Program-made: the position numbers and the translations under genes
Shown here: in pieces, positions 25,701-61,791 of the stretch
Numbering within the stretch: the stretch's first letter is position 1
How the letters are laid out: each line of letters begins with the position of its first letter
Notes under the pieces: generated by a model
What the model was told of the DNA's origin: nothing
The model's input: only the letters and a program-made list of their open reading frames with translations
Database searches by the model: none
Assembly (NCBI RefSeq): GCF_902652985.1
Contig: NC_047021.1
Location: 35,216,001 to 35,280,000 of the forward strand
Length of the DNA: 64,000 nucleotides
Direction of reading: 5' to 3'
DNA from: Pecten maximus
Lineage: Eukaryota

Positions 25701-25718
25701 ACAGACACCATCTTTAAC

Positions 25719-27718
25719 ATGGCGGAAGGATTTGTCCGGGAACAGTCGTCGTTAGATGGCTCCAGGAGTCTGGACACTTTAGTACTGGAATGTCCTATCT
25801 GTCTGGAACAGTTGCGACACCCTAAGTCCCTCCCTTGCCTTCATTCATTTTGTGAGGAATGCCTGGGTAGCTACATCACCAAGGAGTTGTCAGGTAAGAT
25901 GGCGTCTTCTTTCTCCTGTCCTGTATGCCGTAAGGTCACCGAGCCGATGAACCCGTCAGAAGACAAGGAAAGTTGGGCTGGACAGTTTCCTACCAACAAT
26001 CTGGCAGTCGAAATGATCCGACATTTACAAAATACGAATACGTTGATCACATGCAAGCCCTGTGAGAAGAAAGGGAACACGAATGTACCAGCAAAGTTTT
26101 GGTGCCATCAAACTAAATCCTACTTCTGTGCAACCTGTAAAATCGACCATCATGACCTGATTCATGAAGAATGCGAACCCGAGAATATCACGGAATGGAA
26201 CAAATCAGATACGATCCGAAGGCAGACGTCGGCTGCTGGATGTGGAAAACACAAAGAGAAATTAGAGTATTACTGTGAAGATCATCAGATTCTTGGATGT
26301 AACAAATGTATCATTGTCGATCACCGGAAGTGTGAGGTGGTGACATCAGTAGACGATTTCCGGGACAAACTGACACCTTCAAAATTTGACAATCTTCTTG
26401 ATGACCTTCGGAAAAGCACAGACGCCATGGAAACATTAATAAACGATGTCGCAGAACAGCTTCAGTCCATGACAAACGATCAAGACATCGCGCTACAAAG
26501 TTTAACAGACATACGCAAAAAGATTAACGAACGTTTTGATACAATTCAGAAAGAGCTTACAGATAAATTGATGGCAATTTTCAAGGAAGAGAAAGAAAAT
26601 CTGGATATATCGAAACTGAAATGTGAAAGATTGATGCTCTCTATGCAAAATACGCTGACGTCATCAAAGAATGCCGCCTTGAAGGACGATTCTGTGGGAA
26701 CGATCTGTCTTTTCCAGAGAGGCCATGCGGAGGTCGAGTCCTGTAAGGAACTCATAAAGGAGTTGGAAAAGTCGTCCAGATCTACCAGTCTGAGACACGA
26801 GTATGACCCTGACATACTGGCCGTCAACACCAAGACAAGCCTTACTATGGGAAAGATAGTCGTTCATCATCAACAGAGGAGACTACCATCTACTGCGTTC
26901 AGTACTCCATTGTCTGAACGTCTGATGAAGATAACGGGAAACTTAAACATCAAAGTTCCCTCTGACAAAAAAGACTGTTCTGCGTTTGGAGTTGTTCTCC
27001 TGTCTGATGGCCGTATTGTCGTAGGAGAATAATATCAAACAACAAAGTGAAGCTGTTTACAGAAAACGGGGATTTTCATTGTGAGGTGGGATTGAGTGAT
27101 TTGCCTTGTGACCTTTGTCGTATTGATGACAATACTGTGGCCGTGATGCTGGTGACTGTTAAAACCATCTGTGTTGTCGCTGTTGAGGATTTAACCTTGA
27201 CCATCTCATCGAAAATCCTTATTCCAAACATAACTGAAAACTGTCTTGGTGTCACACACATCAACACTAATTATGTAGTTGGTACATTATCATCACTTTA
27301 CAGGGTACCAAAAGATGGGGGTAATGCCACAAAACTTTATACAGTTGAATCAAAAGGTCTGCATCTCGCCAGTAATCAGAAGAATGGGTACGTGTTCGCT
27401 AGCTTACACGAATCAACTCCTGACAAGGTGGCCGTGACACGACTGTCTGGCAAGTCCATCAGAGACGTATTGAAGGTCGGCACTGTGAATAGAACAACAG
27501 GATTAGACGTAGACAGGGAAGGTAACGTGTATGTTTGTGGATTCAGTTCAAATAACGTCATACAGATGTCAGGGGATGGAACTAACGTCAGGGAACTGCT
27601 GACGTCATCAGATGGTATCAAATGTCCGAGGGCGATTTCTGTCTGTGGTGATAAAGTAGTGATCACAAGTGGGTATTCAGACCAACGGAATGGTATATAT
27701 ATGTTTCAGCTCATTTGA
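25719..27718 (+). pseudogene. TRIM paralog 2 (~90% aa identical to 7545-9554), stop plus frameshift at ~27030; could encode a 437-aa RING-Bbox-CC product
   Basis: GGAGAATAATATCAAAC replaces GGAGACTATGCAAAC of paralog 1. The propeller continues in another frame (27047-27718). Confidence 0.9.
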
Positions 27719-28579
27719 ATTGCAACACAGAACTAAGGAGATTAAGGAACATTTGGTGGATTCCGAAGGACAATAGATGAGTTTGTATTATTTAGCTACA
27801 CCTGATTCATTCACTATTTTTATAATTTCTATCGCAATCTGCGAATATCAGTAATATACCATGCAATATGAATCCATGAAGCATTATATATTTTTGAGTA
27901 TTTTCAATAAATACATTCTAATTTTATTAGATACTTCTAAAAAAGGTATATGCGTCCATGGTTAGAGCAGCATAGATATTCGTATAACAACACAAAGAAC
28001 TAAGAAACTATAGAAACTATTGTTATTAGTTAATATAATGCTATTTTTCTTGTATCGTCATTTCCTGTGTATTGCGCGCCCGCACAAGCCGAAATAATGG
28101 TTTTATGATTTAAAGTCTGCAGATAGACCGTCTGCTGCGTAATGGAGAATACGTTCTCACAATCAGGGAATCCCCTGCTGTATGTGTATTGTACTCATAG
28201 TTGACATGTGCTGCCTTGACACGTGAACAGTGTCAATAAATGTATTTTCTGCATATGTACCATTTATATTTACATACATAGGTACCATTCATATTTACAT
28301 AAATAGGTACCATTCATATTTCGCACTTGAAAAGCAAGGCGGCATCTAATAGTACACAAGATTCTCACACAAAAAGTTGAATTGGATTTGACATGTAATG
28401 TATGGCCCGCATTAAATATATATATATTTTGGAATACATTTGTTTTGTCAGATAGTTCGCTTCAACAGATAGCCAACAGAAGGCAATTTTTAGATTTTAG
28501 ATTTATAGACAATACACAGGACATTACGAAAGTCTCAATAGTTGTTATCTCAAATATGTCAAAATCCTCTTGGAAAAGC

Positions 28580-29723
28580 GTTTTGGATCTTCCGGAATAT
28601 GGTATGGTGCACGAGGTTTCGTCCGTCCGACAACTTTTAGTTCTCGAAAACTTTAAGAAACTGGATACTTATATATTTTCAGGAGGTACATGAGGCAAAG
28701 TACAGGAAAGATATCTGATATTAATGAACATGACCTTTTCTCAAGTCATTGAAGCCAAATAGCGAAGATTCCTTTGAGATAGGTATATCTCAAGTGCTAG
28801 AAAAGTTGGACGACTGATATTCTACCAGAGGGTACCAATTGTAGGGTGTATTAAGTTTCTTTGTATCAATGATATTGATCTATCTTCAAGGTCAATAAAT
28901 AAAAAGCCCCCTTTGAGAAGTTCTTTAAGATGTGGGATACTCATATTTCTCCAGTAGGTATCTGCTATGATAATAAGTTAGTGCTATTATCATATGAATG
29001 ATATTACCTAGATCCCAGGACAAAGGGGTCAAATATGTTGAAACCGTCAAGAATCCACAATCAAAGTTCCAGAAGACCTAGAGGCCAGATGTTACCTAGT
29101 GTCTTGATTCAGATAACCTTGACCTATTAAAAGGGTAGAGTTCCAATCAAGAATCTTGAGACCAGAAGACCTGATATTTGGCCAGTACGTACTAGCAATA
29201 GGGTGCTGTAATTTTGTTTCGCATAATGTCCTTTACTACCAGTATAAGTCACATGGGTGTAATATTTAACGGTTCTTTGAAGATCTTTGAAAATTTCTCA
29301 AGTTCTGACAGGTCCGGGGCACTGATATGTCTTCAGAAGGTTCCTGATATTGAATGTTTTATAGGTTTTCCCGCGTGAATGTCAAAATTGTCAAGGTCCA
29401 GTTGGGTAAAAACATTTATCTTATTTATTTCATTTTAACAGCTAGCTGATTCTTTACACTTTTCAGTGATATATGAATTGATATGGGATGATTTAGATAT
29501 GTATGAAAAACATCATCGGATGTAATTTTTGGTATCGCAATGCCATGAATTGACTGATAATGCATGAATGCGAAACCCCATGTTACCATTAGCTCTTTTA
29601 GAAATAGTGAATGACTTTCCTTGACACATTGCTAACATAAGGTTGACATAAAATCTCGATATAGCATTTTCCCATTATTCCGCACTACCCATGTGAGCGA
29701 CGGAGGCCTTCTGGGTCTCTTGT
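28580..29723 (+). mobile_element. Helentron-associated (HINE/DINE-1-like) non-autonomous element
   Basis: 5' GTCCGTCCG microsatellite and TGACCT/AGGTCA-rich degenerate internal repeats. 3' end CATGTGAGCGA..GGCCTTCTGGGTCTCTTGTT. A truncated counterpart lies at ~10390-10590. Confidence 0.5.
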
Positions 29724-30139
29724 TCTGATATTATGATTTTTGAATAGCCATTTTAATGACAATCATCGTGGTATATGTTTTTATTTCTATTTTGCGTACC
29801 ATATCTGCTTTCTTTTTGGAGAAATATGTTTTATTGCATTTTTGCCAGTGAAATATTCTTGCTAGGTTTTGACAAAATACTCACTTGACGTTAGCTATTC
29901 ATGCACAGATTATCCGATAACAGCAGAAAACGCTTAAATATGCGCTGATCATTCCTTTCAAAATGGCGCCGTCAAATTGACGTGGTGTAACGTCAAAAAG
30001 ATATGACGTCATTAATGATTCTCGCACTTTTTGACACTATTAATTTTTCGATGTTTTTAACTTTGTTTTTAAGTATATGAAATGCAATAAAAAAAATTGA
30101 ATGGCTTCCCGCTGAATATAACATATATTTCACGAGATT

Positions 30140-31017
30140 GTTAATATATATATATTGATTGTTAATATATATATATTGATTGTTGATATATATGTATTGA
30201 TTGTTAATATAAATATATTTATTATTGATCTATATGTATTGATTATTCATATCTATGCATTGATTGTTAATATAAATATATCGATCGTTCATATCTATGT
30301 ATTGATTGTTAATACATATGTATTGATTGTTGATATATATGTATTGATTGCTAATATCTATGTATTGAATGTTAATATAAATATATTTATTGTTCATATC
30401 TATGTATTGATTGTTCATATATATGTATTGATTGTTAATATATATGTATTGATTGCTCATATATATGTATTGATTGTTAATATATATGTATTGAATGTTA
30501 ATATAAATATATTTATTGTTCATATCTATGTATTGATTGCTCATATATATGTATTGATTGTTAATATATATGTATTGAATGTTAATATAAATATATTTAT
30601 TGTTCATATCTATGTATTGATTATTCATATATCTGTATTGATTGTTCATATCTATGTATTGATTGTTAATATCTATGTATTGATTATTCATATATCTGTA
30701 TTGATTGTTAATATATATGTATTGATTGTTCATATATATGTATTGATTGTTAATATCTATGTATTGATTGTTAATATCTATGTATTGATTGTTAATATCT
30801 ATGTATTGATATCTATGTATTGATTGTTAATATCTATGTATTGATTGTTCATATATATGTATTGATTGTTCATATCTATGTATTGATTGTTCATATATAT
30901 GTATTGATTGTTCATATCTATGTATTGATTGTTAATATCTATGTATTGATTGTTAACATCTATGTATTGATTATTAATATATCTGTATTGATTGTTAATA
31001 TCTATGTATTGATTGTT
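30140..31017. repeat. 21-bp AT-rich minisatellite (~41 copies)
   Basis: Unit TATGTATTGATTGTTAATATC. It explains the spurious IYVLIVN repeat ORFs. Confidence 0.93.
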
Positions 31018-32397
31018 TATAGCTTGTCCTCGTTTTATCGTTTATGAATCAAAATGACGATTTCATTTACATGCTTGTGTTACGAAAATATGTGTATTGT
31101 TAGCCTACTGTTAGATCAGCTGATTGTAGGTCGCTATCTAAATTGTTGTTTTACTAATTATTTATTAAGTATTTACGCTATTCCTATGTATTATATCTAG
31201 GTCAGTATCTAAACCTTGTTATAACAACAATCGCTAGGTCATATTTACGTCTAAGTATCCTCTAATGCTGTCAGAAGTGATTAAATACGTCCTCTTCTGG
31301 GCGCTGACATCTTTGTTTATCTGCCGCTGTGTTAAGCTATGGAAGTACATACGTAGGATATCATTGGTTAATTGTATCCATCGCGTCGTGTCATTGGTCG
31401 GTCGGTTTTACGCTAGACCTCCGATGCGCATGTCTGTTGTCTCAGCAGTCGCATCGGGGAGTCTTCCCCCACTCAGTCATCTGTGCGGCAGCATTATTGT
31501 TTCGCCAGATAGCAAGGAAACATTTTACCCCTTTGGAAGCTCCATCTTTTTGTTAAATGTTTGAAATTGTTAAACGGCACCAGGCACGTTACATTTATTG
31601 ATAAATATCACCAGATTTATTTTTATAAATCATTTAAAGTAATATTTTTACTCCGTCTGCTAGGGGAATAGTTCCCCAATCGGATGCCCCGAATGGAAGT
31701 GACGTATTAGGAGGATTTCCCCCAACATTCTCGGGGAAAGCTCCAAGTCCCCAACTTACGGTCCCCAACATTTAGGACGACCAGAGGCCCCGACCATATT
31801 ATTTATGTAATCTGTAAATACATATAAATATTACTTTAATATATAATAAACATAACACGATTATTTTATATAAATCGTTTGTTATTTCTTTATGAATTCG
31901 GATTGACCTGGGACAAGGAAACTTTGTTTACTTCGTTCATTGTTTACTTTCCTGCTCCCAGTGACATCTGGAGATTACGAACTCATTATTGTCTGCAGCG
32001 CCTTAGGGCTAGTTTCTAGACCCCGTAAAATGCAGCACTTGTCTTCTTTGTTGTTTATATCGTCTTTCTTCCAAGAATGAAAACATGACCACCATTTCTA
32101 CATACTAAGAAAAAGTGATTTTTATTGGAAAAGCTTGGGAACTCAAAAGCAATTGATGAATATTGATGTGTTTGCAATCAAATACCTTTGAAATAACATC
32201 TAACAAGAATCATGTCCTTAAATCAGTTTAAAACACAATTGACAGTAAAAAATGGTCAACTCATTCCGTACCGTTGTCTACTATAGCCGACATAATTCGA
32301 AGCTTCCTCTTTCCCACTGTAGTCGACAGGTTAAGTTGACGTTATTTAAGTGTTGATTTGTTGAAAACAGCACCCGACACATGCAAATATTCATATA

Positions 32398-32448: not shown

Positions 32449-33255
32449 TTGTACGAACGTCAATTGAAGAAGACAAAAAGGTTGAATATCAAGGTTGCCT
32501 CTGACGAGAACAACTGTTGTGCGTTAGGTGTATTGCTCCTGTCCGGTGGTCGTATCGTTGTCGGAGACTATGCAAACAAAAAAGTGAACCTGTTCAAAGA
32601 AAACGGGAAATTTCAATGTTAGGTGGGAATGGCTGATGAACCTTGTGATATGTGTCGTATTGATGAGAACGCTGTGGCAGTGACATTGACAAACAGTCAA
32701 ACAATATGTGTTGTCAATGTCGTGGATTTAACTTTGACACTCGCATCTGAAATAGAAATTTCAGACATTACTGGAAAATGCTTTGGTATCACATACAGCA
32801 GGAACTCGTTTATTGTAGGCACAGAAACCACACTTTACAGTGTATCGAAAAACGGAGGTGAAGCTACAAAGCTCCGGGAAATTGGATCAAGATGTTTGCA
32901 TCTCGCCAGTAATCAGAAGAATGGACACGGCTTTGCCAGCATCGCTACCTCTGTATTTGACCAAATTGCTGTAACACGGCTGTCTGACGGGACTCACACA
33001 GACGTGCTGAAGGTCGGGGTAGTGGATGGTGCAACGGGAATAGATGTAGACAGGGAGGGTAACGTGTACGTTTGTGGAAGAAATTCTGGCAACGTCATAC
33101 AGATGTCAGGAGACGGAACTAATGTCAGAGAACTACTGATGTCATCGGATGGAATAAAAGACCTGAGGGCGATTTCCGTGTTGGATGATATATTAGTGAT
33201 CACAAATGAGTCAGCAGACCAAGAGAACTTTGTATACGTATTAAAGCTTGTTTGA
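32449..33255 (+). pseudogene. TRIM paralog 3: beta-propeller-only fragment with internal stop
   Basis: LYERQLKKTKRLNIKVASDENNCCALGV...GRIVVGDYANKKV...FQC*VGM...GIDVDREGNVYVCG...VLKLV*. No RING/B-box upstream. GAG>TAG at 32620. Confidence 0.88.
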
Positions 33256-34222
33256 ATGATAAAGTATCGATTTGCATCCATAAATCATATGTGGACTCAC
33301 AAAAATACAAAGAGTTTATATTTATTCTACTACATCTGTATACCCGGAATGTACACATTTCACTGATAGAAAAGAAATAATTGCTAATCACATCGAAAGA
33401 ATTCAGCTTACACCATTTTACATGTAAAAGTATTAGTTATGACATAGTTATACATTATCGTCGTAGATTGGGATTCCTAATTCGACACTTTAAATGATGT
33501 ATTTGTATTTATCAAAACTGTAACTACAGGAGTATATGGTTGCTTCAGTATATATGAATTACTGTAATCATGTTAAGAGCTTGTAAGTATTATCTACAGG
33601 TATGATGAAGACAAAGTTCATATCTATTTTTAAGCTGTTGTTTGATGTTTAGAATAATAGATTACACATTTCAACAATTTCAAAAGGCATATTCCAAGTT
33701 GAAATGAATGTCTATCAAGGTCGAGGTGTACAATGCAGACCCAATGAGCCTCTTATGCAGGAAAATGAATATTTTGTTATATTTTGTTTATGTTCAGTTG
33801 GAAATTAATCAATTTTTGATGAAGGTTTAATGATAGGCGGAGCTCAAAAGGATCAAATTGGTTGAAACTTCAACAGTCTTCTTCTTCAGATCAAGATATG
33901 TCATAATCTAGTATACCTCAGAAGTAGAAAGGCATTCAGGTCCGCTATCATGATGGTGAAATTCATTACAGTGGGACATCACATTAACCCCTAGACAGTG
34001 GGTACAGTTTACTATGGTCTACATAGATGATAGGCGGTATTGTGTCTACAAGTTTAGGGATAACAATCTTAGAGCTTGCATAATCTTTTTAATACAGGAC
34101 CCTGAACTTACCCTATGGGCTTAGGGCGTGACCAAAGGAAGAACATTGACTGAAGTTCAATAATGTTCTTAAAATCATACCCAGATATATCGTATCAATT
34201 GGAGGTAAAAACTGCGAAATTA

Positions 34223-34669
34223 GTCTCTTCCTACTGACAAGTTACCTTTACCTACTGACAAGTTACCTCTCCCTACTGACAAGTCACCTCTACCTACTGA
34301 CAAGCTACCTTTACCTTCTGACAAGTTACCTCTCCTTACTGACAAGTCACCTCTACCTACTGACAAGTTACCTCTCCCTACTGACAAGTCACCTTTACCT
34401 ACTGACAAGCTACCTCTCCCTACTGACAAGTAACATCTCCCTACTGACAAGTTGCCTCTACCTACTGACAATTAACATCTCCCTACTGACAAGTTACCTG
34501 TCCCTACTGACAGGTCACTTCTACCTAATGACAAGTTACCTCTTCCTACTGACAAGTTACCTCTATCTACTGACAAGTTACCTCTCCCAAATGACAAGTT
34601 ACCTCTCCCTACTGACAAGTTACCTCTACCTACTGACAAGTTACATCTACCTACTGACAAGTTACCTCT
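34223..34669. repeat. 21-bp minisatellite (~21 copies)
   Basis: Unit CCTACTGACAAGTTACCTCTC. Confidence 0.93.
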
Positions 34670-37520: not shown

Positions 37521-39165
37521 GGGGGGGGGGGGGGGGGGGGGGGTTAGAATATATCGCATTTAGTGGGCAGACTGTATTTCCGTCTGATGAACATTAAGCA
37601 ATGTTTCACTTCTGGTAGGTTTTTACGTTGTTTTGTGTGGTCGCGAGCTGTAGTATAAAGCTTGGTGATGCCGCGTCCACCCCCCTTATTAAGTAGGGTG
37701 GCGGTGGCCTGACATGACTAAAATAGTCAGTGTGACGTAAGTGCGCCACTTTGTAACATTGTTATACTTATCGTACATGTGTGTACAGTAGTGGAACAGC
37801 AGACAGTCAACTATTCTCGTCGCCAAGACAACACAAAATATAGTGCCATACACGTTTTGATTATTACGATGTTGATACACATAGATACGATATTTTCAAG
37901 GTAAAATATTCATTTATAACAAATATTTATGATATTGTATAATACAATCTTAGCAATACCCATATAGATACGAATTTTAAGTGCAGTGTTGACAGTATAG
38001 TATGTGTGTGATTTGGTCACTCGAGACACAGGGACTCGGTTAAAAAAATGATGTGATGCAGTCTAGCCGGGATATTCAGAGCTCGAGAAAAAGTGTAACA
38101 ATGTGGATTTTAGTCGCAGGTTAGCTGGTGATGTACATGATGTTCTTGAAATTTTGGATTTCATTATCGCACTGGCGTTTTGGGATGTAAATTCTGATAA
38201 TAGTAAGTAAAGAAACATTGATTTGAAAATTGGCGGTATTCGACAGCCGGAAACTTGTGTCCTCCATATGCTTAGATTGAGTCAAATTACGACAATAATG
38301 TGTCCCTGTTCTCGATATAGCATACTTCTGCTACCAGTCTGTTTTGTGTTGTTAAATAGTGTTTAAATTTAGGTTTATTTTCTGTGACCACTGAAATGGT
38401 ATTAAGCATGGCATTCGAGATACAGCTAACGTTAGACCTACTGCGCTACGTAGGTCATGAGCTCGGTGCTATCGAGAGTGTCAGTGTTCTATCAGATCCT
38501 GTTTTCTAAACTGTCTGCATTATACTGGCATGACAAGAAAGTGATTCGTCTCTTAGAACAGAAGCACGCGACCCAAAATCTTCAACGGGAAATGAAGTGA
38601 TCTGAGTTTACTATGTTCATTGAGGCGGAGCGAAGTGAAATTGTAAATATAAGACGTTACACGACTAGGAATATTCTTTATAATCTATGATGCGAATGCA
38701 TTGCAATATCAACCTGCTACATCATGTACAAATATTTTCATATCAACACATGTTAACCATCGTATATGTGTATACTATATCGTTTGAAATACTACCAAGA
38801 TCATTTTATATGAAATGATTTTATTATGTACATACATGATAAAAGACGATATATAATACAAGGGAAATAACTCATATTGTATTAGAACAAGCATGCATTT
38901 CTATTCCTAACTAAGATGTGTGTTGAAGAATCTTTATTTCAAATAAAGGTTTCTTAAATCCAACGCCGATGTATATCTATCGAATCATCAATTTTGATTT
39001 TTTTTCAAAGGTGTAGCTATCGACCTCCGATCAGGAAAGTTCCGCCAGATTATTGCCTTAGTATTCAATTCTCAATAACCCTTTTCACGATAACTGCGGT
39101 CCTGATTTTCGCGCATGCGTGCAAACGCTTCCGGACGGCAACCACTTTGTTTACGTTTTACAAAG

Positions 39166-39455
39166 ATGGTTGTACCAATCGACAGGGGAAGAATGCTAAA
39201 GAGCGAGGCGTTAGTTTTTTTCGATTCCCCAAGAACAAGAGGAAAAGAAAGGCATGGGAAAAAGCTGTCAACAGGGCAGGTTGGGTACCAAATGAGTACA
39301 GCAGAATGTGTTCTGAACACTTTGTAGGCGGGTGGCACAGCGACGAAGCAAACGACATCAACTATCGGCCGACTATCTTTCCACATAAAGGGAAAGTCCC
39401 GTCAATTGAAGAGAGTGCCCGAAATGAAAGATGTTGCCGAAGGAAACTTCTACTG
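39166..39455 (+). pseudogene. Transposase exon 1: THAP zinc finger, 5' end damaged
   Basis: GCTNRQGK...FFRFPKN...WEKAVNR..W.P....MCSEHF...PTIF is THAP consensus, with donor CTG|GTGAG. The first Cys is missing and the ATG at 39166 is out of frame. Putative exon 2 at 39905 (EMDEAEKRERQTLHQ*) has a stop. Confidence 0.8.
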
Positions 39456-40929
39456 GTGAGTCGGTGTTCACACTTTTTGCATTTTACATTCAATATCAAC
39501 TGGATATTGCAGTGGCTATAGCCAGGTCAATATTAGTACCAGATCATACTACTTGGCATATATATTGAGAGGTTCTGACTTTGATACTGCCTTATTACCT
39601 TGTGGATTCCTGTAATACGGCTATAAATATAGATACTATACATTGATATGACTTGTGAAATGTAAAAAAGATTAAGTGTTCATTTAAACTTTCATTAGAG
39701 TCTTGTTTATGTTCTGTAGGATAATGTGTGTGTATGTTGTTTTCTACATCCACCTCCAGTACTGAGTGCCAGTAGCACACATACATATATATGTATGTGC
39801 CAAGGGGTAATACATAATCTGAATCTCATGCATATAACATTCAGAAGTATCCATGATTGGTATTTCGCACATGTGTAATTACTAATTTTAACATACATAT
39901 GCAGGAAATGGATGAGGCGGAGAAAAGAGAAAGACAGACACTCCATCAGTAGATGTTTTCAAGATGCATACGATTTGAGAAATGCATAACGCTAGCGAAA
40001 TGTGAAGACTAAATGAACCTGAACTTTGCGAATAACTCCAGGTCAATAGGGCCTATATTTATGTAAACAAATATTGCGCAGGCGCATTCGTCTCGGGATG
40101 TTTAGAAAGTTTTGCTCTTCCGTGTTCATTCCAAAACGGCTGGCATCGGTCTGCAAATATGTCCGCGATTTACTTAAATGTGCATTATATATATTCTAGA
40201 ATGTTACATCATTATCAACTAGATGAGTATTTATATAATTTAGAGAAAGAAATACATCAATAACGGCATACGAGACGATACATTGTATCATACTATATAG
40301 GTTACTGTACAGTACATGTTTGCTAGAAAGGTAGATACTAGGTGGCATTTGTGGTCAGGGTGACTGGTCATAGTGTTAACATTGTCATCGATTTCCATAT
40401 TCCATTTTCCTTTGACGAAAACGACCAATAAATCAAATGCAAATGATAATATCTTGTTGCCATGTGCACGGGATTGGTTGTTGTAGGCGATACTTAGAAC
40501 GTATTTACTGTTGTAAGGGAGGTAACTGCAAGATTACGGAAATCAAACGTTAAACCAATTTGATTGGTCGATTCTTCCATGACTTTGGCAATGGGTTTAC
40601 AATCGAAGTGACAGATAACTACGGCAATATTCAGATGATATCAACAATAACACTTTTAGATACGTGTGGTCGGCAGTTGTCATGTTTAAAATGAACAATT
40701 ATATAGCTTGTTTTTATTTCGGCAAAGTCGAGAATATTTACTGAAACGGACCACAGGTGAAGCAGACTTGGAAATACCGAAACGAAGAAAAATGGGGCTT
40801 AATTATAATATAAATTGGCATTATTTTCAGAGAATTGACCCACATATATGTTTTTCAATGCCTAATTGTATCATATGTAAAATATTAGAGGTTTACGAAT
40901 TTTAAATTAATTTTTCATTTGCGAATCGC

Positions 40930-42822
40930 GGCCCGATTGTCGTTAGAGTTGAATTACCGAAATGGCCGATAGTGGACCCAAATCGATATTTTTAAGAGAG
41001 AATGGACCCAATATAGGATCTATTAATCTTTGGTGTGTGTATAGAGACCATATGCATTTTTTTCCTTTACCTGGAAGTATTTTGAAAGAATTTGCAAAAT
41101 ACCGAATTCACGATCAAATTTTCGATTGTGACGAACTACTGAGACGGTGTTAAGTTCATGTTAAGTCAATCTGATTGAAATCAGCTGTTACATATGTACA
41201 CTGTACACATGGCTACGTTTACTATGCAATACGCCTACGTAATTTTTTTTCAAAGACGGAAAACGGAAATCCGGATTATCTAAAAACAAATGCAAAAAGA
41301 CTTGTGATATTCACTTAATTTGACATTCAGCCATTAATTATTATTTGTAGTTTTATAACTTCTGAAATAGTGTGATCGATTCTCTATATAATATTGCTGT
41401 GGAACTTGTGCTATTTTTCAAACAAATTCATTTTGATAATTTGTTAATTTAGAACGTTCATCAAGTCATGATCAAGACTTGAAATTCTCGCTACACCATA
41501 CTTCAAACACAGTAATCAATGAATTGATAAATTGAAAATTGAAGTCAAGCAAATGAGTTAATATTTACCTAAATAATTTTTCAATTATATATATACAACA
41601 CATGTTCAGATGACTATTTGTGCCATGCTGTTACAAGATTTCAGTTACAATTCTAAAAGTCAAGCAAATGAGTTAATTAAATATTTACCTAAATAATTTT
41701 TCAATATACAACACAGGTTCAGATGACTATTTGTGCCATGCTGTTACAAGATTTCAGTTATAATTCTAAAATTGAATTAGTATGTAAATATATGTTATAC
41801 TGTCAATATCCACAAAGCGAGTGTAGTCTACTGTACTCAGTCATGCCGGTAGATAGCGGTACATATACGTACTGCTTACATCTCGTGCTTACTTGTGTGA
41901 ACTATAAATCAATAACAAAACTGGTTCATATATTTCTATATATGACTTCACAAATTATGCGGTGTCTGAAGATCTGAATGAAGTGAATAAACGATGTATT
42001 AAATTATTTTTATGAAATATTCAAGTCATAGATCATTCTTTTTTTTTAAAAATACTGATTTCAGGTCCATTTTGGTAATTCAACTATAACGGCAATTAAA
42101 ATACTTCTCGTTTTTTTTAAAGCCGGAAAACCGAAATCCGGATTATCTAAAAACAAATGCAAAAAGACTTGTGATATTCACTTAATTTGATATTCAGCCG
42201 TTAATTGTTATTTGTAGTTTTATAACTTTTGATATATTGTGATTGATTCTCTATATAATATTGCTGTGGAACTTGTGTTATTTTTCAAACAAATTCATTT
42301 TAATAATTTGCTAATTTAAAATTTTCATCAAGTCATGATCAAGACTTGAAATTCTCACTACACCATACTTCAAACACGGAGTAATCAATGAATTGATAAA
42401 CTGAAAATTTACCTTAAATAATTTTTCAATATACAACACATGTTCAGATGACTATTTGTGCCATGCTGTTACAAGATTTCAGTTACAATTCTAAAATTGA
42501 ATTAGTATGTAAATATATGTTATCCTGTCAATATCCACAAAGCGAGTGTAGTTTACTGTACTCAAAGTCATGCCAGTAGGTAGCGGTACATAAACTTACT
42601 GCTTACATCTAGTGCTTACTTGTGTGAACTATAAATAATAACAAAATGGTTCATATATTTCTATATATGACTTCACAAATTATGTGGTGCCTGAAGATCT
42701 GAATGAAGTGAATAAACGATGTATTACATTATTTTTATGAAATATTCAAGTCATAGATCATTCTCTTAAAAATATTGATTTCAAGTCCATTTTGGTAATT
42801 TTACTATGACGGCAATCAGGCC
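40930..42822. mobile_element. Nested non-autonomous TIR element (GGCC termini) with ~0.8-kb internal tandem duplication
   Basis: GGCCCGATTGTCGTTAGAGTTGAATTACCGAAATGG versus the reverse complement of the right end, GGCCTGATTGCCGTCATAGTAAAATTACCAAAATGG. 41245-42095 is repeated at 42110-42822. Confidence 0.7.
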
Positions 42823-43399
42823 TAGAATGGCGAATAAACCCCTAATATTTTACATATGATTAATTTTGACATTGGAGAACATAAAATTGTGTCAATTCTC
42901 TAAGAACTGGTAGAATGTACAGAATAGAGCTTCATAAATATATTCTCAAAATTACTAATTACCCCGGTAAATATAACATTTTACATAAACCTCCCATGAC
43001 TGATGGTGAACTTAAACTTGCAAATCTCCTGTGTCATTCCAGTTTTGATATGTGTAAATATATACACGTACTGTTACATATATAGTTATAGATATGGAAT
43101 GCTTCACAATTTGCAAACAGTTATTGAATCTTATAACACCCCCAAAAATGTTCTCACCACATAAAGGTGTGATTTGTGCAATTACATTGCTGCATTGTGT
43201 GGTTCAGTATGATTGGATGATCAACATTGGAAAAGGACAATAAATAGGGAATGTGTCTTCCCATCGAATGGACTGTAATCTTTGTGATCAGGTTTGAAGT
43301 TGAAAATGAATCTTGAAGTTTTCTTTTCCTGTTTGCTGAATTATTGCTGAAGATAGTCTTTATCTGGTTGTTATTCTTTATCACATTGTTTACAATACT

Positions 43400-43900
43400 G
43401 TAATTATAACAGAAGTTTATCTTCTCATATACAGATTTATTAACATCAAATGATTCCTGAACAAAAGGAGTCAGGATTTTTTGTTTTGATGTACCATAAA
43501 TGCTTGAGTACAGTTTCAATAGGATACATTCCTAATTCGGGCCTTGATTAGCAGCTCTGGTTTTGATTTTCAGTAATTCTTTATGTGTGTTTCATCATAT
43601 TTAGTTGAAATACAACTATGTATGCCAAACTAACGATGGAACTAGCCTAAATTTAGTGCATATTAGAAGTTGGCATCAATAAGGTCACAGAGTCCTGGCT
43701 GTATTATAACTGATGATGCCTTCCCGAAAGAAAGAAGACATGTTTTATTTTCATCGATCCAAGATAGATCAACAAACTTCCAATTTCAATTAGGACCTTA
43801 CAGAAACATGCATGTGTACAATCAAATTAGAATAGCTGCAAACATTTCAAATTATTTGCAATTAATTCCTAAACCGATATCAGTAAATTTATCAACTTAA
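43400..43900 (-). mobile_element. Highly decayed LINE ORF2 remnant
   Basis: Minus-strand pieces EIGSLLIYLGS (cf. EIVxxFxYLG) and ELLKIKTR...ELGMYPIE (cf. GELGRxPL). Confidence 0.35.
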
Positions 43901-44209
43901 AACTAAGAAGATTACTGATTTTGCATTAAACAATAATGTTCGTTTACAGTACTTCCAGTACTTTGATTACTTTTATGGTCAGAAAAAGTAAGGATTTTGC
44001 CTTATCATGAAAACCCTTGCAGGATTCCATTTGGGCTTATGGAGAATTATGCTATAACTTTATAGCTTATATAATTTATGTAATTGTGTTTCATGATGGT
44101 AGTACTTACTTAATTTCTCTAATTTCTACTGATAAATTACTGTTTAATTGAATATTGGTACATTTAAAGCAAATGTACTATATCTACATGTTTTGTAATT
44201 TGGATAGGC

Positions 44210-44830
44210 AGCAACAAATGTAGTAATGACAAATATATAACTGAACACAACCTTTCATGGGGAAGCACACAATTTAATCTTTTAGGCATAAAATGTGATG
44301 TTGACTTAAGTAAAGTAGCAAAATTAAACTTTGATAAAAAACTGGCTAAACTGAAATCTCTCGTATGCTATGGTACAACCATAATGTCAAAATAAACAAT
44401 ACACCTGTTTTGGTTCAAGAAAGGAGTACTGTTCATCTATGATGTTATCCAGGAAGATGGTATATTTTATAATTTCAAAGAATTTCAACAAAGATATGCT
44501 ATTAGATCCAATTTTTTGACATTCCATAGTATAATTAGGGCAGATAAACATTTCATAAGTAGTAAACAAGAAATCATTTCTCTGGAAAAGCTTACCATTT
44601 TACCTAATATATCTTTAAATTCTTTAACACTATGTTGGAAAGGAAAAAAAGTCTGATATGATATATATAATCTGATGTGATAATGAAATTAAACCTTCCT
44701 CACAAATGAAATGGTCTTTGGTTTTTAGTTTTACCATCCAGGAAAAACAAGAAAAATAAATTGATTCATCTGCTTTCAGAACCTCACTCAGTATTAATTC
44801 AGATGGTTACAATATAGAATACACTTTTAT
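44210..44830 (+). mobile_element. Decayed L1/Tx1-like LINE ORF2 fragment
   Basis: NLSWGSTQFNLLGIKCDVDLSKVAKLNFDKKLAKLKSL, LWYNHNVKINN, WFKKGV and RWLQYRI, with frameshifts and deletions. Confidence 0.6.
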
Positions 44831-44886
44831 TTACATAAAATAGGCATACCAGGTAGTATTAATATGAGTTTGATTTCCAATTTCAG

Positions 44887-45721
44887 TTTCCTTCAACCAA
44901 AAGCACAGAGGATGAAGTACTGGATTGGGTCTAACACTGCCCAGGCTTCAGACAGATGTAGATCTTCAACTGGATCTTTACAGCTCATTGATCAACTTTT
45001 TGCTGTGTTGATGAGATTGAGGCTTGGATTGTTTACTGCTGACATTGCTGAAAGATTTCACATCTCTGAAGGAACGTTTTCAAAATATTTCTCTACATGG
45101 ATATCTTTATTGTTTCAGGAACTAAAGCTCCTTAATCCCTTTCCTTCTCGATATATTGTTAACAGAACTATGCCATCATCTTTTAAATCAAAGTATCCTT
45201 CTGTTAGGGTTATACTCGATTGTACAGAAATTTTTATTCAGCGATCTTCCAGTCTCCTTAATCAGTGTATAACATTTTCTAGTTATAAGCACCATACAAC
45301 TGTGAAGTTTCTTGTTGGTATTACACCATCAGGTGTTATTTCCTATGTATCAGAAGGATGGCCAGGCAAAACGTCTGATAGATTATTGACTATTGAGTCA
45401 GGTATTTTAGATCTTTTAGATGAAAATGACAGTGTAATGGCTGACACAGGGTTTACAATCAGAAATGTGTTAGAAGAAAAAAAATGTAAACTGAATATTC
45501 CTCCATTTAGAGGTAATAGTCCACAGTTTACTACTGAACAGATTTTTGAAACACAGGAAGTTGCATCTTTGAGAATACATGTGGAGAGAAGTATAGGTAG
45601 AGTGAAGAACTTTCATATTCTCGATGGTGTTTTTCCTTTGACCCTGTCGCCACTAGTATCAAAAATTTTCAAAGTTGCATGTTGGCTCACAAATCTAGAT
45701 GTCCCACTAGTCACCAACTAA
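44887..45721 (+). CDS. Transposase last exon: HTH plus DDE_Tnp_4 (Harbinger/ISL2EU-type) catalytic domain, open frame
   Basis: LMRLRLGL..DIAERFHISEGT (HTH), ILDCTEIFIQR, FSSYKHHTTVKFLVGITPSG, SVMADTGF and RIHVERSIGRVK give the D-D-E triad. TTTCAG acceptor at 44886. Confidence 0.92.
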
Positions 45722-46469
45722 ACATTTATCATTGTAAGAGCTTATTCAGGACTGTTTGGACTGGTTTCATGGAGAGAACATGTATAATTCTGTTTGCAGA
45801 ATTAAGCTGTATTCAAATTACTTATACATGTATGTCTTGTTTTCCTTTTATCACAAAGCAACAGTATTTTATGTAAATCATGTTGAAAACACATAGATTT
45901 AAGATTATGACTACTGATTATTACATAACTAACTCATCATCAGTGTCACCACATTCACTTAATATGTTTAAGTGAACTGTGAACACACGTTACAATCCTG
46001 TCACATCTGCCTGGTTATTGGTTTCTATTGTACCATTTATAGTGTTGTGCCATCTTGACATCGAATGTTTTCTGACATCATCAAAGAAAGATGTATTAAG
46101 TGAAGATCACCATTTCAGATTTTATTTTGGTCTGATAAAATACCTGGTTATGTGAAAACCTGAATTTTACATTCATGTCCATATTAAAATTAAAGATACC
46201 ATCATTACATTACAGGTATAAAAAAAAACAGGAGTTCGCACAAAGACAATACCACATTGTGCAACAGGCAGTCATACACAACCTCTACACGAACCCTATA
46301 AACAGGCCACACACTTCTTAGACTTAACATCTGAAGTTACTATTAGTCTATTATTATAGTGGACATATAGAAACACAGCAGTGTCTTTTTCCCAGTCATT
46401 TTGTATAAAACATTTTGACCTCCTACAACTGGTTTACATGTATTCTTGGACACTTTTACATGAATTACA

Positions 46470-49400
46470 TTACACATTGATGTAAAACTTTGGTGCAACA
46501 TGGTTAACATAAAATGCGATAAGTTTTGGCATCATACTGCTAACAAATTCTGCATCAAAGTACACTCTGTCAACACAAATGTTATTTTTAGGAGCATTTG
46601 TCCAAACTACAAAGTCACACCATGGCAAACCCATTATTGCCAGTTCACCCTGTACCTGAGCGTAGTATTTGTGGCTTCTTTTCAGTCGTGGTCCCTCTGA
46701 ACTTGCCTCCAAACAGAAATTTGGATGTCCCATGGCAACAATTTCACAGACCTCCAATGATGTGACTGTGGCTCCCTGGATTGAATAGGGACACTTTATC
46801 TCTAGTATACCCATATTGTCACCATCAACAACCCTTCCATCACTAGAGGCACCCAGGTAAGCATGAGTAGCACACAGAGTAAGGCCTGTATCCTCAACTC
46901 CTATCTGACTGCTGAGAGAAGACTGTAGGTCTATATAGTCTTTTCTTGCCTGTGGCTCCTTTTCTATTCCCCACTGAACAGCTGGAGGTAGAACGGTGTA
47001 CCTAAAATTCAAGAGCATCATGTTAAATATGGAAACATTTAAATAAATATTATTCCAGATCATTTAAAATAGTACAGTATTTCAGTTATACCATGACAAC
47101 ACCTAGCTAATGGATGTTACAGTGAATGATTATTTAATGTGGCAAGCCAATGATTGAAACTAAAAGTTGGATAAGTATTCTCATTTGGAAGATTTGAAAC
47201 TATAGCTGTGTCACTGGCAGTCCATGAAGCTAAATACTGGATACCATTCAACTGAATTGAGATCATATGCTGCAAGCCATGTCAGGGCTGGTTACAGAAA
47301 CTTTGGGAGTCATTTTGGTTAAGTGTTATCTGTATATTTATAGTGTCTGAACAAACAACAACTTACCTATTAAGATTTGACCCTTCTACAATTTGTTTAA
47401 CAAGAGAGTTTGGTTGGGGCCCAGCATGTAGAACGTCTCCAAAAATAGAGCTAGTCAGCCGCCCAATATGGAGCTTCTGCCACATGTCTGAAGATCTCTG
47501 ACCACGCGTATTAATCTCAATATACTCTACCAGGTCCTGGCCAATTGAAAGTTGGGGTACTACAAGAAATATAAGTAAACTGTTTTAAACAAGTAGGATC
47601 ACTGCTCCCTTTTCTGTACATCTGCAACTGTGTTGAGACCATATTCCATATGTGGAAAACATTTCATATCAAAAATTGGATTTCAAAACATTGGAAGTAG
47701 AATTCTCTTAGTTTGTTTGCTGTCTATTGTATGCATGTAGGCTTTGTAATGTACTGACCTCTTTTAAGAAAAATTCACATTAAATTTCAAAACAAAAAGC
47801 TAATTGCAATCCTTTTATCAATAAATAACATTTAGCTTTTAAAGAAATCTTACAGTTGCTGTTAGAGTAGATCATGTTTTTCATCTTTAAAAACATTGGA
47901 TTTTCCACAGCCTCTATCTCCTCTTCTTGAATAGCGTCTGGAACATGGTCACCAATGTTCCACAAATGGGACATTCCTGAAAAGGAACATTCAGTGTTAT
48001 TTATGTAAAGAATACATACATGTTGATAGATGATATGATTACCTTGACTATTATATTCAAATTTGCATTTTTAGAAATTGTCAACATTGCTTATATAACT
48101 TGTAAACTGTCATTATGATCTATAATAACAAGAAGTGTTTATACGTGTATCTTTACACATGTTCAAAGTTAATAATTGAAAGTTAAAGGTATTAATGTAT
48201 CGAAATGCAAAATTTGCGACAATTTTTAATCGTCTGGTAAGCATAAATATTTCAGTGGTTTCTGTAGACAGTGCATGTACATATATATAAGCATATTGGT
48301 AAGGATTTTTAAAAAAATGAGGTATATGAGTCAATTTAACTCATGTTCAAAGAAACGATGGCATTGCCTAGCTATTAGTATACATACTACATGTAACTGG
48401 TTGCAAAATATTAATTTGTATTTCTGTTTTTCTGTTGAATTTTGTTTGACATGTTATTGTTATTAAAGTTTCCAATTAGGCCTACATAAAATGTGAAAAT
48501 GAAACTTTCATTGCATTTTTTTTAAACTTACCTGTATTGGGAAAAACATCCTTCAGATTTCTTAGATGGTGAAGAGATTCTTGAGTATTAAAAACTCTAT
48601 CACAAGTGTGACGAGGATCATATGTGTCCGGATGTGATGTGGCTACCTGCTTTGTTGCTGTAACAGGTAGTTTTGGTTTCCTTTGTGGCAAGGAACTCAT
48701 CGGTCCTATGGGCTTAACTGCACGACTAGGAACATTTCATGTGCAGGGTATTGATGTGCAGCTCTTCTCCAGTGGTTTTGTATAGGTTAATGCAAAAAGT
48801 ACACTACCTATATGACTGCAAGTCTGGGCTAACCTATTAAACAAATTAAGATAAGATTAAGAATTTAAAGTAATATTATCTTCAAGATTTTATTATCTTG
48901 GTCACATGTTTATGAATATGATACATTTACAAATTATGCAAGATGATCTGGCTCTTTCATTTAATTATTAACAATTCTTACCCCTCAAAACAAAACGTTG
49001 AGAGTAAAAGATAACCCAGCTTACCCTATAGGACACTGACAATACCCATGTTGTATGGTGGAAGAATCTGTGGCAGACATGCATACAAACACTTGATACT
49101 TCTGTTTCTTCATTGATGCATGACAGTTTGCTCTGACATAAAATGTGTCTGCATCAATCTACAAGGAATGAGAAAACATTCATTATGAGTGGCAGTTTTA
49201 CTTTTTATTTAACATATTTTTTTATATGAAAATATTTTTTTGATATCCAAAATACATAGATAGTCTATATTGAAAGAAATTTGGGAGATATTTGAATTTT
49301 TAAAGTAAATAATCCATGTTTGAGCTTGATTTGATTTTTTTTTAATTATCAAGTTTTCAAATTCATGGCAATTTCTATATAAAAAAATCTAGATCTAGAT

Positions 49401-50136
49401 ATCAAAAAAAGCATTAGTATTATATGAAAATAAAAATCTTTGTCAAAACATATCTTTGGAGATTATATCTAGATTATTTTTTTTTCTATTTTTGTTATTA
49501 TTTTTTTGTTATCAAAAAAGCAATTTTTTTTATATGAAAATGTTAAATATTACATTTAACATGTTAAGCTTCTAAATGCATGTATCAAATTAAACAAAAG
49601 CAAGATATTATTTTAGTTTAATTGACAAGTGATAATTGGAATTCAGCACACGAAAGGAAAAAAATATGGTTCAATTACAAAAAAATCCTTAAAACTTAAC
49701 CACACCGAATTCATACTAGACACCAATTTACAACACTAATTACCTGTGATACTCCTATATCCTGGACGTCACCTGCGTCAAAATGCTTTACCGCACGGTC
49801 TAAACCTTTGAAGTTTTGTACTGTTCTCCCAGATGAAGTTGGTCTCGCAATCAAGAAGTCATAAATTTGTTTAAAACTAATTTTTGGCAGTACGATGCCA
49901 TCTGGATTTGTATACCGCACCTTGTTATACGGGGGTAAGTTGAATCTCGGTGTTGCACCATCCGTGGGGAGGGATTGGTGTACAATTGGAGTTAGAACAG
50001 ATGTTTCAACTTGAGATGTAATGATTTCATTGATAATTTCAGCTTTTTTCTTTTTGGAAAAATCTATACCGTGATCTTTAGCTAGAGTTCTCAGCGAATT
50101 GATTTTAAGCTTGTTTAAACTCTCCCGCTTCGACAT
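46470..50136 (-). pseudogene. ISL2EU ORF2: Rho_N/SAP-like helix, SWIM zinc finger and YqaJ (lambda-exonuclease-like) nuclease; 6 exons, 559 codons, one premature stop
   Basis: Exons 50136-49744, 49158-49025, 48833-48532, 47976-47854, 47559-47367 and 47001-46470 are all GT-AG and phase-consistent (1677 nt). SWIM YCQCPIGLAQTCSHI. YqaJ TRGQ...W...GRLTSS.FG, LGASSDG, LEIKCP and YYAQVQG. TGA at 48737-48739 where W is expected. Confidence 0.88.
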
Positions 50137-51041
50137 AGTGTTTTGTGGTAACTAATGTAAACAGTGGTTGCCGTCCGGAAGTGTTTATGCGCATGCCCGA
50201 GAATTACCGTGAAAAGGCTTATTGTCTTTAACGTAAAGTCCGATCAGATTAGAAGTAAAGCAGTCGTAGTACCACCAACTACCACGACATGACAGAGCAC
50301 AATTGTCACCTTCTTGGATATCGTTGTCTCTGTCAAATGTGGTGAACGCATAACCATCATGGGTGGACAAGGCATCATCTAAAATAGCGAAAAAATTAAA
50401 TAAATATCATGAACAAGCAGACAAGTGACAGTCAGCAACGATAAGTTTACGTGTATCACTTATTAACGGAAGCTGTAACAGCACGCATGCGCAATTCGGC
50501 AAGGATAAAATTAACATGGCAGTCAATGACCAACTGGCCCTATACATTACGACATGACTGTGAAAACTACTCTGATTCATCGTCGGCAATTTAAATATAT
50601 CCTATCGACATGTTTATTTTATATATATAAAAGTTGTGACCAGCACACCGACAGCAGAGTTGAGCTATCGCGGCCCGATGATATCGTCATATAAAAACAG
50701 ACTTTGGCGAAACAATCATCCTGACTTCAATATGCAGAGGGCGCAGTTATGTTGCTGCTGATGAAAAGAAATTAATTCTTAAAAGTGGGGTAAAGGCTGC
50801 AATAGAATAAACTACATACATTTAAGTTAAAGAGAACAATTATGCTTCATACTAACAAAATGTAGTATGTAATAATCTGAAAATATAAAGACATTTAGTG
50901 TAATTACGACATTGATTTTACTTCTTTATATTCACTCTTTATCAATTAAAAAGCTAACAGTGTAACAAACCATTTGTATTTTTTATTTTCGGCTTGCGAA
51001 TTTCACTGTTATTAGTAGTACGGAGAACTTTCATGAAAATG

Positions 51042-59694: not shown

Positions 59695-59875
59695 GTACCT
59701 TTAACAACCCATTTTATTATGGGCAGTGTATATGTATATCAAACCTTTATGAAAAGTTGTAAAATTGTTGAACATTCTTGAAATGAATTATAAATTGTCA
59801 GTTACTCTCTGTAAGTTCATATACTTTCCAATTATCTTACCTGGAAGACTAGTTTATAAACAGCACACAAGCTTT

Positions 59876-60681
59876 CCAGCCATGAGAAATGCAAGTACAA
59901 GTTCAATAGGTCAAATATCACTGTTATAATGATTTATTATGGTCATTTTGAGGTGAGCTCACCTGATCCAGCTATGAGAAATGCAAGTACAAGTTCAATA
60001 GGTCAAATATCACTGTTATAATGATTTATTATGGTCATTTTGAGGTGAGCTCACCTGATCCAGCCATGAGAAATGCAAGTACAAGTTCAATAGGTCAAAT
60101 ATCACTGTTATAATGATTTATTATGGTCATTTTGAGGTGAGCTCACCTGATCCAGCCATGAGAAATGCAAGTACAAGTTCAATAGGTCAAATATCACTGT
60201 TATAATGATTTATTATGGTCATTTTGAGGTGAGCTCACCTGATCCAGCTATGAGAAATGCAAGTACAAGTTCAATAGGTCAAATATCACTGTTATAATGA
60301 TTTATTATGGTAATTTTGAGGTGAGCTGACCTGATCCAGCCATGAGAAATGCAAGTACAAGTTCAATAGGTCAAATATCACTGTTATAATGATTTATTAT
60401 GGTCATTTTGAGGTGAGCTCACCTGATCCAGCCATGAGAAATGCAAGTACAAGTTCAATAGGTCAAATATCACTGTTATAATGATTTATTATGGTCATTT
60501 TGAGGTGAGCTCACCTGATCCAGCCATGAGAAATGCAAGTACAAGTTCAATAGGTCAAATATCACTGTTATAATGATTTATTATGGTCATTTTGAGGTGA
60601 GCTCACCTGATCCAGCCATGAGAAATGCAAGCACAAGTTCAATAGGTCAAATATCACTGCAGTTATAATGATTTATTATGG
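59876..60681. repeat. 92-bp tandem repeat (~8.7 near-identical copies) with 14-bp palindrome AGGTGAGCTCACCT
   Basis: Unit starts at 59876, 59968, 60060 ... 60612. Confidence 0.95.
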
Positions 60682-61791
60682 TCTCTTAAATCCAATACCA
60701 AGCAAATATTAAGTAAATTTCATATACAGGCATGTTCTCTTTACTTTGAGTCTCGGTGCTATAATGACATTACGAGATTTGAAAGAATTTGTACTGTACA
60801 CAGTCTGTAAAAAAATAATGTAGAGGATGAGATGCACTTTATACTATTACGTCCAGCTCATTCAGAGTTCAGAGTTAGGTTATGAAACAATATTATATAG
60901 ACACCCGAGTGATTATAAGCTTATAGAACTAATTTAATGAAAAAATTATAACAACTTTTGAGTAAATTTGTTTAATATTTGATGATGAATAAAAAAAACT
61001 TGAAACAGTTGTGTTTATATGTTTAGATTTTCCCCTGTTTTATCCAACAATTTCTCTTTTGATGTGCCATCAGCCAAAACTTCCATTTTAAGAGTTCAAA
61101 GAACAGAAGTACATATATATAATATTTATTGAGAGTAAAAATATGCACCATTTTTTATATGCATTTATATCAAAAAAATAATACAAGGATAGTAAGTGTT
61201 ATAAATACTTTCATGGAAAATTGTACCATGTGTCTTATAATAGAGTGATAGATATATTTTGGTGTGAGATTTCCTAAGAAAGTGTTTGTATGTAAATGTA
61301 ACTCTTTCAGAAGTTGCATTTAAATTTGATCTAGTTTGAAATAAATTTAAATTTATTTATTTCTTAATTCTTGAAATAGCACATTAAGCGCATGTTGACC
61401 TATATGCCAAACATAACACATAATCAATATGTGTGTAAATGTCACCCTAATTAACTGTAACCCTTGATATCTCAGGTGAGAATCATATAATTGGCTATAT
61501 GTTTGGTTAAAAAAACAAGTCATTGTTCTCCATAATGGGAGGTGGAGCTGTAGGGTAGAAGGGGACCAGGAATCACTTACCTGTGTAATATTTGTATCAA
61601 TTATTAAACCACTTTGTGGTTTCCTTTAGCTCTTGTCCTAGACTTTTCGTCTGCCATGTTGTATATTCCATTTGACAGCATCTTCACTGACAGTAAAAAC
61701 TAATTTGACAGAATCAACCAATCAAATTCTTCTAGAAAAATATATGATATAAATGTTGATGCTACTATCGATTCTCAATGACATCTACAAC

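Follow-up and report, generated by a model that had tools for sequence, protein, structure and literature searches.

A dead ISL2EU-type transposon in a fibrinogen-domain exon of Pecten maximus and a possible role for its YqaJ-type nuclease

What is the 11,144-bp insertion that splits a fibrinogen-domain exon of Pecten maximus, and what might the phage-type nuclease that it encodes contribute to a transposon? We address these questions in a window of 64,000 nucleotides (assembly GCF_902652985.1, contig NC_047021.1, positions 35,216,001 to 35,280,000, forward strand; the window is this whole stretch, and positions are counted from its first letter), and in related copies elsewhere in the genome. 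As to identity we are close to certain: the insertion is a dead element of the ISL2EU kind, with a transposase gene and a convergent second gene, open reading frame 2 (ORF2). The fuller account, in which a dead ISL2EU lies in a fibrinogen exon and its ORF2 nuclease is a likely resectase of donor ends, homologous repair then raising copy number, has in our estimation an even chance of being correct. The literature is cited throughout from the sections of each paper that we consulted.

Insertion site and element ends

Three paralogous fibrinogen-domain exons, here termed copies B, C and D, lie in the window. By self-BLAST, copy C aligns with these paralogous sites up to 39076 and resumes at 50221, which places the insert at 39077-50220 (11,144 bp, plus strand), and the same termini recur in three other end-to-end copies; copies B (~21385) and D (~54215) are unsplit. 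This confirms the event as a previous reading of the sequence alone (the sequence-only reading) had described it. The 5' part of the interrupted exon, as judged by alignment to B and D, occupies 50221-50378 on the minus strand, with the remainder left of 39077. Fibrinogen_C (Pfam) is matched by copy D (E 2.7e-13). Copy B (21385 region) has a premature stop of its own, and among these exons only copy D is open. The sequence-only reading had also taken an unsplit TTCTCC-AT for the preserved empty site: B and D do carry it, but copy C reads TTCTCA-AT, and B and D are paralogues of C rather than an empty allele. The C>A change immediately left of the AT turns the site of copy C into CAATTG and also places a TGA in its fibrinogen frame.

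The terminal 19 bp of the element pair at 16 of 19 places, and a second, subterminal block is repeated at both ends (terminal inverted repeat, TIR, plus block: 39077-39157 on the plus strand at the left, 50154-50220 on the minus strand at the right). An AT dinucleotide stands on either side (39075-39076 and 50221-50222). A search of the genome with both element ends and the TIR pattern gave 21 pattern matches, against none in a reversed control, and yielded three further end-to-end copies. The expectation that such a search would return copies flanked by AT was borne out in part: AT directly adjoins 10 of the 12 distinct termini in the family, but one copy, L029, is without it. The target A|AT|T is present at the window insertion site; across the 10 AT-bearing termini the flanking A is found at six, and a C one base farther out at nine. 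Because AT is palindromic, an AT duplication around AA...TT ends is identical in sequence to a blunt insertion of T...A ends, and no non-AT target that would separate the two occurs among the 21 TIR matches. Thus the AT flanks and the ends first proposed hold, while a target-site duplication can equally be read as a blunt insertion.

Two broken genes and their intact counterparts

Exons of the window transposase match THAP (5.8e-12), HTH_Tnp_4 (2.8e-15) and DDE_Tnp_4 (1.5e-43) in Pfam. Exon 1 (39166-39455, plus strand), which encodes the THAP domain, lacks 22 bp after codon 2 (after 39170), a frameshifting deletion recognised by alignment to the other three copies, all of which retain these 22 bp. 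Exon 2 survives as a 45-nt remnant (39905-39949, plus strand), 121 of its 166 nt having been lost together with all 181 nt of exon 3; their place is taken by 4,023 bp of nested foreign DNA. Exon 4 (44887-45721, plus strand), encoding HTH_Tnp_4 and DDE_Tnp_4, is open; it reads ADTGF where the three other copies have ADKGF, a K>T replacement beside the second catalytic Asp.

ORF2, on the minus strand, splices into six exons with GT-AG introns throughout (1677 nt, 559 codons including the terminal stop), as originally proposed. Exon 1 (50136-49744) encodes a Rho_N/SAP-like helical N-terminus, exons 2 (49158-49025) and 3 (48833-48532) the two halves of a SWIM finger; after exon 4 (47976-47854), the nuclease domain starts in exon 5 (47559-47367; Viral_alk_exo E 0.0023, below cut-off) and its YqaJ/lambda-exonuclease-like core follows in exon 6 (47001-46470; YqaJ E 7.5e-09), with the catalytic E, D, ExK and Q present. 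The one internal stop is a TGA at codon 208 (48739-48737, in exon 3), where all five other copies that span the position read TGG. The sequence-only reading had presented the element as complete, this stop as the only lesion and the copy as a near-reconstructable model. With the transposase frameshifted, partly deleted, altered beside a catalytic residue and carrying a nested 4,023 bp, none of these three descriptions is supported.

Intact genes lie in other copies. The three further end-to-end copies (L029, 8,154 bp; L030, 6,360 bp; L031, 8,706 bp) are 0.9-2.3% apart, and the YqaJ gene is present in all four, in line with the earlier expectation. L031 splices to an open 497-aa transposase, letter-identical to P0042 (NCBI LOC117316886, Pecten maximus), in which Pfam likewise finds the THAP, HTH and DDE domains; a frameshift, a stop and a 533-bp insert disrupt the ORF2 of the same copy. 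That insert (L031:2086-2618, in ORF2 exon 3) has direct-repeat flanks of ~11 bp, is very abundant in RNA contigs and is likely a SINE-like (short interspersed nuclear) element. Conversely, L030 has an open 558-aa ORF2, and its transposase is deleted from within THAP to intron 3; in L029 (G000:C18:33043256-33051409) both genes are broken. None of the four copies is therefore autonomous, one having an intact transposase and one an intact ORF2, and any movement of the family in this assembly would require L031 and L030 to complement each other. Since intact natural genes exist, consensus repair of the lesions is unnecessary. Left of 46.5 kb, 22 sites place L029 with the window copy, against a single site to the right; these sequence differences mark L029 as a mosaic of two sublineages that changes over near 46.5-47 kb (window coordinates). 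All four copies have decayed frames within intron 3 of the transposase (window 44130-44860), with a 75% match in L047; these frames resemble the end of a LINE (long interspersed nuclear element) ORF2, and those at 44168-44653 have no Pfam match.

How does this family compare with known systems? ISL2EU elements of the PHIS superfamily combine a THAP-HTH-DDE transposase with a YqaJ second ORF and an AT duplication (PMC4482050, PMC4122938), and oyster families ISL2EU-8, -10, -11 and -15_CGi are listed in Table S2 of PMC4482050. Our family shares the THAP-HTH-DDE arrangement, the YqaJ ORF, AT, a short TIR and an animal host, its protein lengths (497 and 558 aa) falling within the listed ranges. 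The intact transposase has D(22)K(29)D(21)D..P..R(3)E at residues 331-453, which conforms to the PHIS motif D(19-29)K(29)D(18-40)D(11-19)P(18-28)R(3)E (PMC4122938). These Pfam matches, that to YqaJ and a homolog model described below uphold the original ISL2EU assignment and domain calls. The differences are that our family's ends start AA (a first-place A also occurs in sister families), whereas ISL2EU TIRs, of 6-259 bp, 'usually' start GG (PMC4482050), a tendency and not a rule; that its target appears looser than the A|AT|T of ISL2EU; and that, without nested inserts, it is ~8 kb long and intron-rich, against a mean of ~4.8 kb. PIF/Harbinger elements such as Harbinger3_DR share a related DDE_Tnp_4 transposase with a required second gene; however, that partner is a Myb/SANT protein and not a nuclease, and the duplication is TWA, neither of which is seen in the window element. 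Spy was rejected as well: it has a single ORF, an AAATTT target and no THAP, and the window element has two genes, THAP and a CAATTG site.

Unnamed bivalve models in NCBI/UniRef (P0043 of Crassostrea virginica, P0044 and P0004 of Ostrea edulis, P0002 and P0001) are 80% identical over the DDE exon and 63-64% identical over ORF2, but are annotated as genes, not elements. In trees made without ISL2EU reference sequences, transposase and ORF2 both group with the same oyster proteins (support 100/98 and 99/98). Horizontal transfer from oysters was considered; the tree cannot separate it from old paralogy. We regard the window element as a new, low-copy, dead member of the already known ISL2EU kind. 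With the element type described and the copy dead, the finding as first written is ordinary, and the question of more general interest is what ORF2 does.

The ORF2 nuclease and its possible task

A structure was predicted for the ORF2 homolog P0013, 52.5% identical (pLDDT 87.6, pTM 0.55). This model superimposes on lambda exonuclease (Z 19.0, root-mean-square deviation 2.7, 197 residues aligned), on LHK-Exo (Z 18.9) and on Epstein-Barr virus alkaline nuclease (Z 15.7). The SWIM region of ZSWIM8 aligns with its residues 88-203 (Z 10.1, root-mean-square deviation 2.4, 98 aligned), and the Rho N-domain with residues 2-42 (Z 7.4, a middling score common to SAP/LEM-like helices). Lambda exonuclease, LHK-Exo and herpesvirus alkaline nuclease thus share fold and active site with ORF2 (profile E 2.6e-25 and 4.9e-09), but their role is in recombination of phages or viruses, and they have neither a SWIM finger nor the N-terminal module. 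Pfam places Rho_N below its cut-off (E 5.3e-05) and gives a weak SWIM signal (2 of 27 members, best E 0.0068); nevertheless, the CxC-xn-CxH ligands that define a SWIM finger, on a SWIM fold, are near-invariant, and the homolog model fits ZSWIM8. Several relatives are already labelled 'SWIM-type domain-containing protein' in UniRef, and an atlas search with ORF2 returned SWIM-type or hypothetical clusters only. No mention of SWIM or Rho_N-like modules was found in the consulted sections of PMC4482050, PMC4122938 and PMC9179366. KolobokE is another eukaryotic DNA transposon with a lambda-exonuclease-like nuclease (PMC9587614).

Another line of evidence comes from conservation. We assembled 116 ORF2 homologs, 12 from one protein listing and 104 of 150 from a profile search, picked by length; the profile itself matches 3,204 cluster representatives with E values of 1e-30 or lower. 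The catalytic E, D, E and K are retained in 116, 115, 115 and 116 of these homologs, and the SWIM C, C, C and H in 115, 115, 116 and 116. Private to the window copy, in ORF2, are 14 synonymous changes at 364 sites and 9 nonsynonymous changes at 1295 sites (p 6e-5), and the nonsynonymous rate (9/1295) is also below that of introns (46/1905; p 1.4e-4). On an inner branch, the DDE exon has 7 synonymous and 2 nonsynonymous changes (p 7e-4). Judged by these counts, purifying selection has acted on ORF2 along the window-copy branch, and on both genes. A dN/dS comparison with sister families was saturated (pS 0.72-0.76) and was discarded. DNA transposons are described as evolving neutrally within genomes and under selection at horizontal transfer (PMC7070016), a pattern under which each of our two sublineages may have arrived on its own. 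Selection on ORF2 between sublineages, together with its full active site, speaks for participation of the extra ORF in transposition, a point left open in PMC4482050, just as the sequence-only reading had held; we found no functional study of an ISL2EU ORF2, and no paper on its SWIM finger, in a search with subscription journals and Repbase Reports outside its scope. It is highly probable that ORF2 is an active nuclease which the element needs.

The pairing of the two genes extends beyond this family. When the best 150 of 552 transposase candidates were set against the best 150 of 326 YqaJ candidates within 6 kb, 85 of these transposase matches had a YqaJ neighbour (72 convergent, 13 divergent), and 51 of the top 60 had a convergent one. 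In the two sister families examined, copies are 99.4-99.8% alike. The first, the L094 family (L094:2316-8773, that is G000:C2:18427815-18434272), is intronless and 6,458 bp long, with 489-bp TIRs and copies (L094, L095, L096) that are 99.6-99.8% alike; AAT is found at six of six ends, and the A|AT|T target at six of six termini. Both frames, a 497-aa THAP-HTH-DDE protein and a PHD-SWIM-YqaJ protein, are open in all three copies examined. This family was likely active recently and is a much better model than the window copy; its open frames make it a ready test system for the role of ORF2. The second (L090:531-7692, G000:C7 at 40.24 Mb; also L091-L093) is ~7.16 kb long, with copies 99.4-99.8% alike and ends that start AG, and its second gene is SAP-SWIM-YqaJ, the SAP occupying the position of the N-terminal module. 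A head-to-head group (L097, L098 and 11 further pairs) has ends that start TG and AAT flanks. For the two more distant sister elements, no right end was located.

In recombination, exonucleases of the lambda type resect double-strand ends in the 5'-to-3' direction. With this in mind, we envisage that ORF2, as a lambda-exonuclease-like 5'-to-3' nuclease, would resect the broken donor ends left by excision, and that homologous repair of the resected donor would restore the element there, so that copy number goes up. On the PHIS model, excision itself falls to the THAP-HTH-DDE enzyme, which binds the ends, releases the element and inserts it at AT with a 2-nt stagger (PMC4482050, and in keeping with what is known of DDE transposases); ORF2 would be brought to chromatin by its N-terminal module (Rho_N-like here, SAP or PHD in other families) and its SWIM finger. 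That donor-end resection feeding gap repair is the specific job of ORF2 seems to us slightly short of evenly balanced. If true, a eukaryotic transposon would control the repair of its own break. More doubtful is an extended version, in which ISL2EU owns a lambda-type resectase, directed by the SWIM finger and an exchangeable chromatin-reading module (Rho_N-like, SAP or PHD), that channels the excision break into homologous repair, so that cut-and-paste transposition yields additional copies; in this genome the family would persist as two components on different chromosomes, the transposase and the nuclease, and the transposase transcript would run antisense across the nuclease gene.

Several points count against donor-end resection. 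The substrate of ORF2 is putative, its 5'-3' exonuclease action is predicted from fold and residues, and the structure belongs to the homolog P0013, not to the window protein. The 116 homologs were gathered by a profile that contains the motifs, which makes the motif conservation partly circular. The other three ORF2 terminal branches (6 synonymous and 15 nonsynonymous changes in total) do not differ from neutral, as is expected after insertion, so that the selection test rests on one branch. Among the best 150 transposase matches, 65 are without a YqaJ neighbour among the best 150 listed. Both flanks of L029 are unmatched, with no adjacent AT at either end, and this copy is uninformative on target duplication. 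Finally, in the sister group Spy, transposition proceeds with no second gene (PMC11304231).

The nuclease might instead work within the transpososome, where it would trim the excised element, either its non-transferred strand or the DNA that flanks it, and so ready it for integration by the DDE enzyme; a like role has been conjectured for the KolobokD nuclease (PMC9587614). Tight gene linkage and conserved catalysis would fit such trimming equally well, and purifying selection on DNA transposons is reported to arise at horizontal transfer, when invasion calls for a function (PMC7070016). Yet the DDE core is a normal PHIS core, the one-gene Spy relatives transpose alone, and a processive lambda-type exonuclease would presumably make a risky trimmer. 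We consider trimming unlikely; that the closest solved relatives of ORF2 are recombination resectases, and that Spy moves without a partner, favours resection. Distinctly less probable is that ORF2 serves mainly as a scaffold, attached to the ends or to chromatin and responsible for bringing the transposase into the nucleus, with cutting secondary. In Harbinger3_DR, a possible analogue, the Myb protein binds the transposase, and nuclear co-localisation depends on it (PMC9710019); ISL2EU ORF2 has been termed a DNA-binding protein (PMC4482050). Against this, conservation in our 116 homologs is as high for the active-site residues as for the zinc ligands.

Could ORF2 instead restrain the element, destroying excised copies or free ends and so lessening harm to the host? 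A 5'-3' exonuclease could in principle degrade excised linear DNA, and the possible overlap of an antisense transcript hints weakly at coupled regulation; but a positive need more easily explains the pairing in 51 of the top 60 transposase matches and the wide animal spread, and we think restraint very improbable. Least credible of all, to the point of being negligible, is that the two genes are host genes or chance neighbours rather than one mobile unit. Although the intact transposase is a transcribed, uncharacterized NCBI gene, four end-to-end copies at unrelated sites have the same termini, the exon insertion is set against unsplit paralogues, and decay on the terminal branches is neutral; the dispersal of copies with common ends refutes this idea.

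Nested repeat, transcripts and other features of the window

The foreign DNA within the window element (39946-43968, 4,023 of 11,144 bp) is a young, high-copy repeat with Helentron/HINE-like ends. It replaces ~1.0 kb of the host element, which it joins at a common TCAG, its own first 208 bp gone. Matches of 95-99% occur over many contigs (39 of 1030 candidates scored). The ends common to all 20 retrieved copies comprise subterminal inverted repeats (subTIRs), a 5' short inverted repeat, a 3' palindrome and T-rich flanks without duplication, all of them features described for oyster HINE elements (PMC7492417). The full form is ~4.2 kb long and strongly represented in RNA contigs. A plausible history of the window copy would begin with insertion at AT and the loss of 22 bp at a microhomology of GGT; a Helentron-like element would next have entered intron 3 at a TT, followed by a deletion at TCAG microhomology that would have removed ~1.0 kb of host together with 208 bp of the insert.

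Evidence from RNA was drawn from contigs of five of 24 runs (X1, X5, X6, X7, X10), of which only X6 is recorded as RNA. These contigs back five of the eight introns, namely the three of the transposase and ORF2 introns 2 and 4. One X1 contig joins all three transposase introns, X5 and X6 join two each, and the intron 1 joint is present in contigs of three of four runs. For ORF2, only X5 has contigs that join introns 2 and 4, and introns 1, 3 and 5 have no joints among contigs of the examined runs. Cover of ORF2 exons 1-3 is zero in three of four runs, which says nothing about expression. In the transposase contigs of X1 and X6, exon 1 has a 5-nt insertion that resembles the frameshift of L029; the allele transcribed in these two runs seems to be that of L029, and a defective copy may thus account for much of the transcription. 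Unspliced contigs span ORF2 exons 4-6 and end at 48481, 48447 and 48385 in three runs, and at a like place in X10, near an ATTAAA at 48462. They give a weak hint of a long 3' untranslated region of the transposase transcript (45722-48481, plus strand), antisense to ORF2 exons 4-6.

Some further loci have sister-family ends around unrelated internal DNA (L039-L042 and L044-L046, 7-11 kb) and were taken as non-autonomous. Of these, L041, L042 and L044-L046 have no tblastn match to either protein, and L039 matches ORF2 exon 1 only. At G000:C2:2657601, and in at least seven similar matches with identical scores, YqaJ lies inside open frames of 968-999 aa and is without a DDE_Tnp_4 neighbour; these are possibly KolobokE-like elements. 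Elsewhere in the window, a 3.6-kb block occurs twice (6993-10581 and 25176-28763, 84% identity), with a partial third near 32450-33258, and tandem arrays lie at 2188-3989, 30115-31024, 34218-34669 and 59875-60683 (periods of ~37, 21, 63 and 92 bp).

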